Positions 3,366 to 7,442 of a stretch of 8,645 nt of DNA are shown in pieces (position 1 is the stretch's first letter; every line of letters starts with the position of its first letter). Origin of the DNA: a virus (Duplodnaviria > Heunggongvirae > Uroviricota > Caudoviricetes). Under the pieces are notes generated by a model that ran no database searches, was not told the DNA's origin, and was given only the letters and a program-made list of their open reading frames with translations. The stretch lies in IMG/VR virus record IMGVR_UViG_2548876856_000015; one strand, written 5' to 3'. Made by a program: the position numbers and the translations under genes.

Positions 3366-3653
3366 TTTTTCCTCCCTTGGTCTACGCGCGGTCATGTTTT
3401 ACGCCCAAACGACTTCACAGTTATTGTTTAAAATCTGGACTTTCATTTCATACACCTGCTTTAACATGAGTGCCTGGTGGCACAACATGACTCAACGAAT
3501 CATCCTGGACTTCATATGCCCCAGGCGGCTACTTCGTGGGCGTCCTGCCTGTTCGTTTTTGACATTTACTGACTGCTTACGACACATGCACCGTGTTGCA
3601 ACCAGATTTTGTTGTAATCCGGTAGTTGGTCTGGAACAAAAGATAAAATTAAA

Positions 3654-3690
3654 TTGCGAGATATGCAAGTAATATTTGCGAGGTATGCAA
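3654..3690 (-). promoter_or_regulatory. OL-like operator pair, probable leftward early promoter region
   Basis: Two 15-bp near-palindromes, TTGCGAGATATGCAA (3654-3668) and TTGCGAGGTATGCAA (3676-3690), spaced 22 bp apart. Same TTGCG-N5-xGCAA pattern as sites in the cI-cro intergenic region. On the minus strand TTGCAT hexamers could serve as -35 elements. Confidence 0.5.
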
Positions 3691-3703
3691 ATTTATAGGT
3701 AAT

Positions 3704-3724
3704 AAAAAGCCACCTTTCGGTGGC
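3704..3724 (-). terminator. Rho-independent terminator downstream of the cI-like gene
   Basis: Minus strand: GCCACC-GAAA-GGTGGC stem-loop (3724-3709) followed by TTTTT (3708-3704), about 20 nt after the cI stop at 3745. Confidence 0.6.
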
Positions 3725-3744
3725 CGATGGATGGGATATTGAGG

Positions 3745-4437
3745 TTAATTATGTCTCTTAAGGGTTTGCGACTGACTGATTAAGACCTTTCCAAAGACCA
3801 TGAATCGGTGTTCGTTTTCGCTAGTAATTCCCCATTCACGGTAAATCTGGTTATCAGAAATCACCAGCAGTTTGTCAGGAATCATTTGAAGTCTTTTAAC
3901 GTATATTTTGTCATCAAAACCAAAGACATATATACCATCACCATCAAACTGATTGATGCTGACATCAACGAAGATGAGATCTCCTGGCTCAATGGTTGGA
4001 CACATACTGTCCCCACGAACGTTGATAACTTTGATGTGATTGGCTGGTCGTCCGCCGAACATTGATACAGCATTATCAGTTCTGTATTCGATGGCATGAA
4101 TCACATCAATGACATCACCGCCTTGGATAAGGCCATTTCCCGCACTGGCACTGATATCCAGCATTTCAATACGGAACACATCCTTCACCTGCGCAACATC
4201 CTCATTATTACTGTTTTTATATACAGTATTACTTTTGTGGGCAGAGGTAAAGAGATCAGCAATATCAACACCTAAGCTCTTGGCAATATTACTCAGTGTT
4301 TGTTCGGTAAATTGTTTTTGCTTACCCGTTTCTAAGCGCGAGATGTTCGCCGCATCTACTCCTATTGCTTCAGCGAGATCGGCGATTTTCATGTTCTTCG
4401 CTTGGCGAAGTTGTCTGACTCGGTTTCCTATGTTCAT
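3745..4437 (-). CDS. cI: cI-like prophage repressor (N-terminal HTH + C-terminal S24 LexA-like autopeptidase domain)
   Basis: 230 aa. N-terminal HTH_XRE-type segment VRQLRQAKNMKIADLAEAIGVDAANISRLETGK. C-terminal GDSMCPTIEPGDLIFVD (Ser nucleophile) and YVKRL (Lys) match the S24 family. Divergent from the cro-like gene. Confidence 0.9.
   Translation of the reverse strand: MNIGNRVRQLRQAKNMKIADLAEAIGVDAANISRLETGKQKQFTEQTLSNIAKSLGVDIADLFTSAHKSNTVYKNSNNEDVAQVKDVFRIEMLDISASAGNGLIQGGDVIDVIHAIEYRTDNAVSMFGGRPANHIKVINVRGDSMCPTIEPGDLIFVDVSINQFDGDGIYVFGFDDKIYVKRLQMIPDKLLVISDNQIYREWGITSENEHRFMVFGKVLISQSQTLKRHN
4209..4228. promoter_or_regulatory. LexA (SOS) box-like palindrome inside the cI coding sequence
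   Basis: TACTGTTTTTATATACAGTA matches CTGT-N8-ACAG with an AT-rich spacer and TA flanks; about 18 of 20 positions agree with the E. coli consensus TACTGTATATATATACAGTA (from memory). Only CTGT-N8-ACAG match found in a manual scan of the window. Confidence 0.4.
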
Positions 4438-4534
4438 GCGTTTATTACATTTCTTTATTGCGTGATAAGCAAATCAACTTGCGCAAAATAATTGCGTGAA
4501 ATAACATGCATAACGCGCAATATTTGGAGGTTAT
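4438..4534. promoter_or_regulatory. Divergent cI/cro promoter-operator region (OR-like)
   Basis: 97-bp intergenic region between the divergent cI and cro starts. Contains TTGCGTGATAAGCAA (4458-4472), the palindrome TTGCGCAA (4479-4486), TTGCG at 4492, and ATGCATAACGCGCAA (4506-4520; TTGCGCGTTATGCAT on the other strand). GGAGG at 4526-4530 precedes the cro ATG. Confidence 0.55.
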
Positions 4535-4795
4535 ATGCAATCACTATTACGAAATGTGCGTAAGGCGCATGGTTTCACTTTGCAGCATGTTGCTGCGGGT
4601 GTTCAAGTCAATCCAGCGACGTTGAGTCGTATTGAGAGGCTGGAGCAGATTCCATCTATCGAGCTTGCAGAACGTTTAGCCAATTTTTTTAAGGGTGAAG
4701 TCAGCGAAATGCAGATTCTTTATCCGGCACGTTTTCAATCTAGCCAAAACCAGAATGGGTTTAAACCACAGGAACAGGAGGTGAACCGTGGGTAA
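4535..4795 (+). CDS. cro: Cro-like HTH (XRE-family) regulator
   Basis: 86 aa. HTH segment GFTLQHVAAGVQVNPATLSRIERLEQIPSIELAERLANFF. First rightward gene, divergent from cI. Stop TAA at 4793-4795 overlaps the next gene start. Confidence 0.8.
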   Translation: MQSLLRNVRKAHGFTLQHVAAGVQVNPATLSRIERLEQIPSIELAERLANFFKGEVSEMQILYPARFQSSQNQNGFKPQEQEVNRG

Positions 4796-5339
4796 GCATC
4801 ACTGGAAAGTAGAAAAACAGCCTGAGTGGTACGTGAAAGCTGTCAGAAAAACTATCGCAGCGTTGCCGGGGGGTTACGCTGAAGCTGCTGACTGGCTGGA
4901 TGTAACAGAGAACGCATTATTTAACCGCCTTCGTGCCGATGGCGATCAGATTTTCCCGCTGGGATGGGCAATGATTTTGCAACGTGCTGGTGGAACTCAC
5001 TTCATTGCTGACGCTGTGGCGCAGTCTGCAAATGGCGTCTTTGTGTCTCTTCCTGATGTCGAGGATGTGGACAACGCCGATATCAACCAACGCCTGCTGG
5101 AGGTCATTGAACAGATCGGCAGTTATTCAAAACAGATTCGTTCAGCAATTGAAGACGGTGTAGTGGAACCGCATGAGAAGACAGCAATTAACGACGAGCT
5201 GTACCTCTCAATTTCGAAGCTGCAGGAGCATGCAGCACTGGTCTACAAAATTTTTTGCATTTCAGAAAGTAATGACGCCCGCGAGTGTGCAGCTCCGGGC
5301 GCCGTGGCGTGTCGTGACTGTGGAGAAACTAACGCATGA
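4788..5339 (+). CDS. CII-like phage regulatory protein (function tentative)
   Basis: 183 aa. GTG start at 4788 with AGGAGG at 4776-4781. Sits in the lambda cII position after cro. The sequence recalls the longer 'phage regulatory protein CII' family; this is from memory, not verified. Stop overlaps the next ATG (ATGA at 5336-5339). Confidence 0.5.
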
Positions 5340-6627: not shown

Positions 6628-7116
6628 ATGAGTCTGTTAAATGACGTTCAGAAATTCATTGAAGCCCATCCGGGGTGTACTTCCGGAGACATTGCGGATG
6701 CTTTTGCTGGTTACTCACGGCAGCGCGTTCTGCAGTCAGCAAGCAAGTTACGTCAGAGTGGACGTGTGGCTCACCGTTGTGAAGGAGATACACGCAGACA
6801 TTTCCCGCGCCTGACTGAGAGAGCGCAGGAGCCGAAACCACAACCAGTTCGTGAAACCAGACCTGTGCGTAATTTCTATGTCGGCACTAACGATCCCCGG
6901 GTGATTTTGTGCCTGACCCGCCAGGCGGAAGAACTGGAGTCCAGGGGCTTATACCGTCGTGCTGCAACCGTGTGGATGGCGGCATTCCGTGAAAGCCACT
7001 CCCAGCCAGAACGAAACAATTTTCTGGCGCGTCGTGAGCGGTGCTTACGGAAAAGCAGCAAGCGCGCTGCATCGGGTGAAGAGTGGTATCTGTCAGGGAA
7101 TTACGTGGGGGCTTAA
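6628..7116 (+). CDS. Hypothetical regulatory protein with a PerC-like C-terminal motif (tentative)
   Basis: ATG at 6628 preceded by AGGGGG (6616-6621); the ORF track starts at GTG 6622. The segment AEELESRGLYRRAATVWMAAF resembles the PerC-family motif as I recall it. The N-terminal ~60 aa look like a small winged-helix domain. Stop TAA overlaps the next start (TAATG at 7114-7118). Confidence 0.4.
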   Translation: MSLLNDVQKFIEAHPGCTSGDIADAFAGYSRQRVLQSASKLRQSGRVAHRCEGDTRRHFPRLTERAQEPKPQPVRETRPVRNFYVGTNDPRVILCLTRQAEELESRGLYRRAATVWMAAFRESHSQPERNNFLARRERCLRKSSKRAASGEEWYLSGNYVGA

Positions 7117-7442
7117 TGACGACGTTAACTCAATGCCAGCAGCAGGTGCTGGATATGCTGATTTCTTATCAGAAAGAACGTGGCTTCCCACCAACCAATC
7201 AGGAGGTGGCAACCATGCTGGGATACCGTTCGGTGAATGCAGCGGTGGAGCATCTTCGTGCTCTGGAGAAAAAAGGCGTCATCACGATAAAGCGTGGCGT
7301 GGCCCGGGGGATAACGCTTCATACCGCGGTGAAGGACGACGACAGCGAGGCGGTCGGGATTATCCGCTCACTGCTTGCCGGTGAGGAAAACGCCAGGCTG
7401 CGTGCAGCCCACTGGTTACATGAGAGGGGCCTGAAAGTATGA
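7116..7442 (+). CDS. LexA N-terminal DNA-binding-domain-like protein (no S24 peptidase domain)
   Basis: 108 aa from ATG 7116 (ORF track starts at 7083). LTQCQQQVLDMLISYQKERGFPPTNQEVATMLGYRSVNAAVEHLRALEKKGVITIKRGVARGITL aligns by eye with E. coli LexA residues ~1-70 ([65 protein letters not shown]). The C-terminus is short and has no Ser/Lys peptidase motifs. Confidence 0.65.
   Translation: MTTLTQCQQQVLDMLISYQKERGFPPTNQEVATMLGYRSVNAAVEHLRALEKKGVITIKRGVARGITLHTAVKDDDSEAVGIIRSLLAGEENARLRAAHWLHERGLKV

Follow-up and report, generated by a model that had tools for sequence, protein, structure and literature searches.

Prophage induction is known to be linked to the SOS response of the bacterial host by two separate routes. 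In one, LexA controls separate antirepressor genes; in the other, the cI repressor undergoes self-cleavage that is stimulated by RecA. The operator of E. coli umuD is among the tightest SOS sites and among the last to be derepressed. A further type of regulation, found in Tn5 (Inh versus transposase) and in P22 (SieB/Esc), relies on internal starts within a gene, from which in-frame, N-terminally truncated inhibitors are made that are proposed to antagonize the full-length protein through mixed oligomers. Here we describe a LexA operator sequence (SOS box) that lies inside the coding sequence of a cI repressor gene. The gene is carried on an 8,645-nt stretch of viral DNA (Caudoviricetes; IMG/VR record IMGVR_UViG_2548876856_000015), referred to in its full length as the window, which comprises the integration and the immunity/early region of a lambdoid prophage. 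Within the gene the box is followed by a conserved ribosome-binding site (RBS) and an in-frame start codon, and thus the LexA route and the cI route to induction apparently come together in one gene. In the literature search, which left most subscription journals uncovered, no earlier account was found of a cI-type repressor gene that contains a LexA operator or a nested, SOS-inducible gene for the C-terminal domain.

The box occupies positions 4209-4228, where the plus strand reads TACTGTTTTTATATACAGTA and the minus strand, which is the sense strand of cI (3745-4437), reads TACTGTATATAAAAACAGTA. It has the sequence features of an E. coli-type LexA operator, namely CTGT-N8-ACAG, an AT-rich spacer and closeness to the consensus TACTG(TA)5CAGTA, to which TACTGTTTTTATATACAGTA is matched at 18 of 20 positions (2 mismatches). 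An exact pattern search finds CTGT-N8-ACAG nowhere else in the window. The 20 bp correspond to cI codons 70-77 (N-T-V-Y-K-N-S-N), which belong to the linker that joins the helix-turn-helix domain (HTH_3, residues 7-62) to the S24 domain (residues 104-218). The end of the box is 307 bp from the start of cro (4535). On the minus strand the sequence is the same as that of two validated E. coli SOS boxes, those of umuD and sbmC (PMC3009722, Table 4), and the identity to the umuD box is also seen in the umuD upstream region of MG1655. When scored with a LexA position weight matrix (PWM) derived from 12 other boxes that have been validated in E. coli, the site reaches 26.3 bits, a value inside the range of the training sites (20.4-26.6 bits); the next-best site in the window scores 7.1 bits, and the best among 200 shuffled windows scores 17.6 bits. 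The number of sites this good that is expected by chance in the whole window, both strands included, is ~4.6e-5.

The repressor family that carries this box is common. A homolog search returned 1,172 repressors at E<=1e-10, and, of 5,426 complete E. coli genomes, 1,060 (about 20%) contain at least 80% of the cI gene. Members of the family are found in SfII, mEp460, some Stx2a phages, phage 1720a-02 and Salmonella ST64B. In the DNA of the 24 genome loci that were examined, the box lies at gene nt 207 or 210 wherever it is carried; the genera represented are Shigella, Citrobacter, Kluyvera, Pseudescherichia, Klebsiella, Trabulsiella, Pantoea, Buttiauxella, Mixta, Rosenbergiella, Proteus and Serratia, and Cronobacter phage ENT47670 is a further carrier. 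The search was then reseeded with distant members, the close-family seed having given near-identical copies only, and 160 metagenomic and viral loci were added. Among repressors with this N-terminal domain there are 98 distinct linker variants, and all of them keep the box, again at gene nt 207 or 210. They come from at least 12 genera of enterobacteria, and protein identity falls as low as 48%. The box is absent from the repressors of Dryocola, even though these have the same type of N-terminal domain, and from homologs that share the C-terminal domain only (BTP1, HK022, HK639, Omnitron and others). Within +/-4 kb of each box locus there are no other LexA-like sites.

At the protein level the linker is hypervariable, except for an island of the form T-V-x-x-[N/Y/D/H...]-S. 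What is conserved can be seen in a codon alignment of 15 diverged genes (54-92% protein identity), in which the third base is invariant in 6 of 229 degenerate codon columns; 4 of these 6 columns lie inside the 6 box codons. Residues T71, V72 and S76 are invariant, and Thr71 is always encoded by ACT and Ser76 always by AGT. Codon 75 can specify N, T, P, D, S or H, yet its third base (C16, in the CAG arm) is fixed; the second base, A or C, makes the arm read ACAG or CCAG. Within the gene, entropy is lowest over the 20 nt of the box (0.31 vs a mean of 0.80), although these lie in the most variable segment of the protein, and Cronobacter-type genes, which encode T-V-D-T-Y-S, retain CTGT-N8-ACAG. 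Thus, third positions are frozen while amino acids vary, which argues for selection on the DNA. Given this DNA-level conservation (the fixed third bases, the T-V-D-T-Y-S genes and the retention in 98/98 variants), chance, a peptide motif or a simple RNA hairpin are poor explanations. In our judgment the box is very probably a functional LexA operator under DNA-level selection, at which host LexA would bind. The initial annotation of this DNA had reported a single CTGT-N8-ACAG at 4209-4228, in the cI linker about 300 bp from cro, and had proposed that the site be scored with a LexA weight matrix and be sought in related prophages; position and uniqueness are borne out, and both tests favor the site. 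Its estimate of chance occurrence, which used the 8 arm bases only, understated the significance of the whole 20-mer, and the coincidence that it had allowed for is effectively excluded by the chance expectation, the PWM score and the conservation at the same codon position.

ST64B (locus L029, 2501-3196; STMMW_20241 in D23580) carries the box as TACTGTATGTAAACACAGTG. According to a published study (PMC7067206), ST64B was the only one of five D23580 prophages that raised lytic-gene expression after peroxide or nitric oxide shock, and the lytic genes of BTP1 were transcribed constitutively through spontaneous induction.

Downstream of the box, and in the cI frame, lies a putative internal start. 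GTG codon 87 (4177-4179, minus strand) is preceded, at a distance of 5 nt, by the Shine-Dalgarno (SD)-like sequence AGGTGA (4185-4190, minus strand), whose predicted duplex with the 3' end of 16S rRNA (-6.9 kcal/mol) is among the strongest 7% when all positions of the gene are compared. GTG codon 84 (4186-4188, minus strand), with GAGG 11 nt upstream at 4200-4203, is an alternative in-frame start. In 15 diverse genes, Val at codon 87 is encoded by GTG in 11 of 11 cases, vs 19% elsewhere, where GTG is the rarest Val codon (P=1.3e-8); the remaining genes have ATG, ATG, TTG and CTT. For the stretch preceding codon 87, the predicted duplex with the 3' end of 16S rRNA has an energy of -5.4 to -11.9 kcal/mol in 14 of 16 diverged box genes, whereas values of +2 to -3.5 kcal/mol are obtained for 9 of 11 box-less homologs. 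Codon 87 was considered as a universal start, but this idea was rejected when lineages with GTA and GTT appeared in the larger sample; it gave way to the statement that there is at least one start, with turnover. For this purpose a start was counted if an in-frame ATG, GTG or TTG with an SD (ΔG <= -5 kcal/mol) is present between the box and the Ala-Gly site. At least one such start is found in 98/98 box variants. The fraction is 0.16 when stretches of equal size are taken elsewhere in these genes, and of 10 box-less homologs 1 has such a start. The distance from the box to the start is 40-75 nt.

The pattern of turnover is seen when the variants are compared. In the 78 with an early start, the Val95 codons are GTC (27), GTT (13), GTA (11) and GTG (10). 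In contrast, 18 of the 20 variants that lack an early start have GAGGT-N7-GTG at Val95, and in the remaining 2 (Proteus type) codon 90 is a GTG. On a neighbor-joining tree built without the linker, the codon-87 start is lost at least 8 times, always where an alternative start exists. Loss of any start occurs once on this tree, in Dryocola, together with loss of the box; the Dryocola repressors have neither the box nor such a start.

The predicted fold of the full-length mRNA pairs the internal SD, AGGUGAAGG (4182-4190, minus strand), with an upstream segment, CUUUACCU (4246-4253, minus strand). Since the CUUUACCU segment is missing from a transcript that starts in the box, the fold suggests that the internal RBS would be masked in the cI mRNA and open in a short RNA. 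A family-wide test of SD masking gave a mixed result: native pairing beats shuffled controls in 63 of 98 variants, the lineage of the window itself is ambiguous, and masking is tentative.

The promoter of E. coli umuD has the form TTGATC-17-TACTGT, in which TACTGT opens the identical box. The corresponding arrangement on the minus strand of the window is TTTACC-17-TACTGT, which the initial annotation had pointed out and which is present as described. The putative -35 element, TTTACC (4246-4251, minus strand), falls in codons Phe63-Thr64 and lies 17 nt before the putative -10 element, TACTGT (4223-4228, minus strand). The latter makes up the opening 6 nt of the box, an arrangement shared with the umuD promoter. 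From promoter geometry, transcription is predicted to start at A residues at 4215-4217 (minus strand), ~7 nt past the -10 element and within the box. A synthetic promoter of the form TTGACA-17-box is genotoxin-inducible (PMC9074414). In the family, TTTAxx is present 17 nt 5' of TACTGT in 76/98 variants (TTTACx in 64, TTTATT in 12), and variants without TTTAxx show other -35/-10 pairs, for example TCGACT-18-TATAAT within the box. Over the 98 variants the best sense candidate that overlaps the box has a median score of 8.7 bits, a value that ranks among the top 0.03% for hexamer pairs of the gene, and it outscores the best antisense candidate in 72. An SOS-gated internal transcript had been one of the options raised for the box at the outset. 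This option is now supported by the umuD-like geometry and by the downstream RBS and start in 98/98 variants; the transcript itself is a prediction with a computational basis.

The evidence is, on balance, in favor of an internal, LexA-gated SOS promoter that would drive synthesis of a truncated repressor consisting of the C-terminal domain only. In an undamaged lysogen, host LexA would sit on the box, and the internal sense σ70 promoter would be silent. Strong or prolonged SOS would then deplete LexA, allowing a minus-strand transcript to start at ~4216, within the box, and to end at the cI terminator after ~470 nt. Translation of this short transcript from GTG codon 87 (or 84), behind the SD, would yield a protein of ~144 aa without the DNA-binding domain, in which the Ala-Gly cleavage site and the S24 domain, responsible for dimerization and proteolysis, would be retained. 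Such a short protein could join with intact cI in heterodimers that have one DNA-binding domain (dimer poisoning), or, alternatively, it could cleave cI in trans. Either action would add a LexA-timed input to RecA-stimulated self-cleavage and would reinforce induction. The short product would most probably be a modulator built into the repressor. The direction of its effect is proposed more cautiously: a pro-induction role, in which a self-encoded antirepressor is made only on LexA depletion and acts by dimer poisoning or by trans-cleavage of cI, is a tentative proposal, and somewhat doubtful when taken by itself. The opposite role, in which the short product serves as a protective decoy for activated RecA, is a possibility.

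The protein sequence is consistent with this model. The cI repressor (230 aa; HTH_3 and Peptidase_S24 Pfam domains) has 100% protein identity to SfII CI and shows the layout of self-cleaving S24 repressors: an N-terminal helix-turn-helix, an Ala-Gly linker, a C-terminal Peptidase_S24 domain and a Ser/Lys dyad. By analogy with the S24 family, the Ala99-Gly100 codons (4138-4143, minus strand) would specify the site of RecA-stimulated self-cleavage, and the surrounding S-A-S-A-G is invariant in the family. The predicted catalytic serine, Ser144 (GDSM; 4006-4008, minus strand), and Lys181 (VKRL; 3895-3897, minus strand) each lie in an invariant alignment column. The predicted nested open reading frame (ORF; 3745-4179, minus strand, cI frame) would encode 144 aa. 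In this product the Ala-Gly pair comes at residues 13-14, the S24 domain is complete (residues 18-132 match Pfam Peptidase_S24, E=2e-19), and Ser144 and Lys181 are retained. The product matches E. coli UmuD with 36% identity over 83 aa and is, as predicted, UmuD-like in size, architecture and operator. No umuC-like or Y-family polymerase gene is present in the window; a terminator and OL/PL lie 3' of cI.

In Klebsiella phage ST101-KPC2phi6.1 (locus L112, 1696-2181), a database coding sequence that starts internally corresponds to a C-terminal-domain-only "CI" that lacks the helix-turn-helix, and a survey of Stx phages describes a "Clade III" CI without this domain, with function unknown (PMC8951638). 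A match in the Citrobacter phage Omnitron that starts at residue 86 was considered as a stand-alone C-terminal-domain gene and was rejected, since it belongs to a full-length repressor with a different N-terminal domain. In the Omnitron repressor (locus L030, ~2204-2941), the C-terminal domain is 50% identical to the SfII-type family from residue 86, the N-terminal domain is unrelated, and there is no LexA box; the recombination joint is at the same place as the predicted internal start and the domain boundary. In Mannheimia phage PHL101 (locus L117), the cI gene is the only one among the box-less homologs with an ATG and an SD (-6.0 kcal/mol) at the equivalent of codon 87, at the boundary between the linker and the C-terminal domain, and this phage might initiate internally without a LexA box.

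Several observations weigh against the model of a LexA-gated nested gene. The -10 element TACTGT and the -35 element TTTACC are both weak; a strict consensus σ70 scan of 3550-4650 finds nothing at threshold, and the internal candidate appears with a softer PWM alone. In addition, the -35 element lies within conserved Leu-Phe-Thr codons, and its conservation is therefore confounded by that of the protein sequence. The published text on the S. Typhimurium ST64B transcriptome (D23580 and 4/74; Canals et al. 2019), in the portion available, gives no internal transcription start site. The noncoding RNA STnc1310 was considered as the internal transcript and was rejected, since it maps to the PL region, ~330 bp downstream of the repressor gene in ST64B. 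The start codon is also not uniform: the mEp460/Stx2a sublineage, which is common, has GTA at codon 87, and its sole candidate is codon 84 (ΔG -6.8 kcal/mol), with a long SD spacing of 11 nt. A synonymous-shuffle test of SD strength gives a modest result (combined P=0.006), because much of the SD signal comes from the Glu/Gly-rich composition of the linker. Furthermore, the box genes form one clade, which provides few independent contrasts between box and no box; the start with SD was apparently lost only once, and the start at codon 95 was gained about twice. Finally, the internal start could be used constitutively from the full-length mRNA.

Among other explanations, the one that survives best, although it is improbable, is that LexA bound within cI forms a partial roadblock to transcription from PRM and PRE; a roadblock had also been among the options raised at the outset. 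Relief of the roadblock during SOS would then raise cI and buffer the lysogen against weak or transient SOS; alternatively, LexA occupancy itself might be functional. A roadblock requires neither a promoter nor a start codon, and it would fit both the weakness of the flanking promoter hexamers and the fact that the box is the sole strictly invariant element beyond coding constraints. However, it leaves unexplained the presence of a start with SD (98/98 vs 16%), the preference for GTG, the turnover of starts and the umuD-like spacing of the -35 element. Moreover, translated mRNAs usually read through single-dimer roadblocks.

It is unlikely that the internal start is used constitutively on the full-length cI mRNA, with a LexA box whose role in the clade is separate and coincides with it. 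The evidence for an RBS and a start is independent of any promoter, and the box-less repressor of Mannheimia PHL101 has its ATG and SD at the equivalent site, as this explanation would allow. Yet box and start occur together in 98/98 variants and are jointly lost in Dryocola, and the box precedes the start by 40-75 nt, in promoter geometry. In addition, the internal SD is predicted, tentatively, to be masked in many members by a segment that only the long mRNA contains.

Quite unlikely is repression by LexA of an antisense promoter on the plus strand, directed toward the 5' half of cI, OR and cro, which would work through antisense pairing, interference or SOS-driven cro. The LexA-controlled oop RNA of λ is a parallel. 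The palindromic box does hold a -10-like TATATA/TACAGT on the plus strand, and good hexamer pairs are present in some relatives (for example, in loci L010 and L013). However, the candidates lie at inconsistent positions and have a median of 7.3 bits, vs 8.7 for the sense candidates, and the antisense -35 region is the most variable part of the gene, with a nucleotide entropy above 0.9 throughout. Antisense transcription also leaves the sense-strand RBS and start unexplained. Thus antisense regulation, which had been suggested initially for this box, finds little support, there being no conserved antisense -35 element and no consistent candidate position.

The window also encodes, at 7116-7442 on the plus strand, the LexA-like protein of 108 aa that the initial annotation had described as consisting of the LexA DNA-binding domain only; this is real by its Pfam match (LexA_DNA_bind, E=2.9e-19). 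The first 65 residues form the LexA DNA-binding domain, with the recognition helix largely conserved, and there is no S24 domain. Against what we take to be the sequence of E. coli LexA, the identity to residues 1-86 is 43%. Since the protein lacks an S24 domain, RecA could not stimulate its cleavage; it could therefore be a phage-encoded, uncleavable SOS-box binder in lytic growth. In this phage it may well bind the box, as a possible extra ligand from outside the conserved module. Its gene is found near the box in SfII-like loci and in one Citrobacter locus only, and it is also present in Phaseolibacter, which has no box. A gene confined to so few loci does not explain the family-wide conservation of the box, and the link between the two that had been suggested is consequently not general.

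This protein enters a further alternative, in which the palindrome is not a site for host LexA at all, and acts instead as an mRNA hairpin, as a T-V-Y-K-N-S peptide motif or as a target of the phage-encoded LexA-like domain. The arms of the box can form a 6-bp stem, residues T71, V72 and S76 are invariant, and the LexA-like DNA-binding domain is encoded in the window itself. Nevertheless, this is very unlikely: the invariant third positions and the six amino acids found at codon 75 argue against a peptide constraint, the AT-rich spacer tracks the LexA consensus, which a hairpin loop does not need, the sequence is identical to that of two validated operators, and the gene for the DNA-binding-domain-only protein is absent from most box loci within the flanks at hand. 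Chance occurrence without function, in whose favor one can say that AT-rich linkers can hold palindromes and nothing else, has a negligible probability, since 4.6e-5 sites are expected per window and the same codon position is used in at least 12 genera; it is refuted by the conservation.

The remaining features of the window are those of a lambdoid phage. Its immunity segment (3600-4900, the 1.3 kb that was queried) has 99% identity to Shigella phage SfII, and on sequence grounds the window is an SfII-type immunity region. The minus strand carries int, xis and cI; the plus strand carries cro (4535-4795), CII/YmfL-like, O-like replication and PerC-like genes, the LexA-DNA-binding-domain-only gene, rusA and KilA-N. 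An intrinsic terminator 3' of cI (3708-3725, minus strand) has a GC-rich stem of 7 bp with a run of T residues after it, and the SfII annotation has a terminator here too. The operators of the phage itself are of the TTGCG-N5-GCAA type. As located by pattern searches, OL (3654-3690) contains two copies, TTGCGAG(A/G)TATGCAA, which are distinct from the LexA box, and OR (4458-4520) contains operator copies between cI and cro. Scans of the window against Rfam and for tRNAs gave zero matches. In SfII (locus L001, 8015-8668), a dam methylase gene lies between the PerC-like gene and the LexA-DNA-binding-domain gene; the window is without dam, and its two genes abut (7113-7119). Between 2586 and 2922 the window has overlapping ORFs in several frames, the longest of which (annotated as hypothetical protein SfII_35) translates into an Arg/Cys-rich, unprotein-like sequence; the Rfam and tRNA scans are blank here as well.

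If the model of an internal LexA-gated promoter is correct, prophage induction would be coupled to LexA by a nested, in-frame, truncated repressor, which would be a new way of setting the induction threshold. Induction would then integrate two SOS signals with separate timing, RecA-stimulated cleavage and the late depletion of LexA at an operator of umuD strength. The locus would also be a clear case of overlapping regulatory and coding information that has persisted across long evolutionary distances. The repressor family is both common and of medical relevance; it includes some Stx2a-converting phages, the serotype-converting phage SfII and ST64B of S. Typhimurium. Consequently, the arrangement could affect Shiga toxin release and the behavior of prophages under antibiotics that trigger SOS.

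Several known systems share parts of this arrangement. In those with LexA-controlled antirepressors (Tum of 186; GfoA and GfhA of Gifsy, PMC3121763; AntC of N15), host LexA gates a phage gene and the repressor is inactivated, as is proposed here. However, these antirepressors are separate genes for unrelated small proteins, and self-cleavage is generally not a property of the repressors that they target. In the present case the candidate is the C-terminal domain of the repressor itself, which would be made from a nested in-frame start, and full-length cI keeps its Ala-Gly site and its Ser/Lys dyad. A separate antirepressor gene of the Tum/Gifsy type with a LexA box of its own was not found, as there is no other LexA-like box within +/-4 kb of any box locus. 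Hex of phage 434 (PMC3564112) is likewise a second protein of the cI transcription unit that modulates RecA-stimulated cleavage of the repressor, but it is specified by a distinct ORF 3' of cI, is made constitutively from PRM, is not related to S24 and is not controlled by LexA.

With respect to the predicted product, the C-terminal fragments of LexA and λ cI cleave in trans (Kim & Little 1993, as cited in PMC8951638). Together with the intermolecular cleavage of UmuD, this provides a precedent in which an isolated S24 domain can act on full-length molecules; these fragments, however, are made in vitro or by cleavage, rather than from a separate SOS-inducible gene. Inh of Tn5 and Esc of P22 belong to other protein families, and a LexA-gated internal promoter is not their defining feature. 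In the case of E. coli umuDC, the differences are that it is an intergenic unit of a chromosomal mutagenesis operon, while the predicted unit described here is embedded in frame inside a phage repressor gene, that there is no umuC or Y-family partner here, that the putative -35 element is weaker (TTTACC vs TTGATC), and that there is no homology outside of the box. Even so, the two share an identical 20-bp SOS box and the same order of a -35 hexamer (putative here), 17 nt and a box that opens with TACTGT, and in both the product, here predicted from sequence, is an S24-domain-only protein of ~140 aa with a cleavable N-terminal arm.

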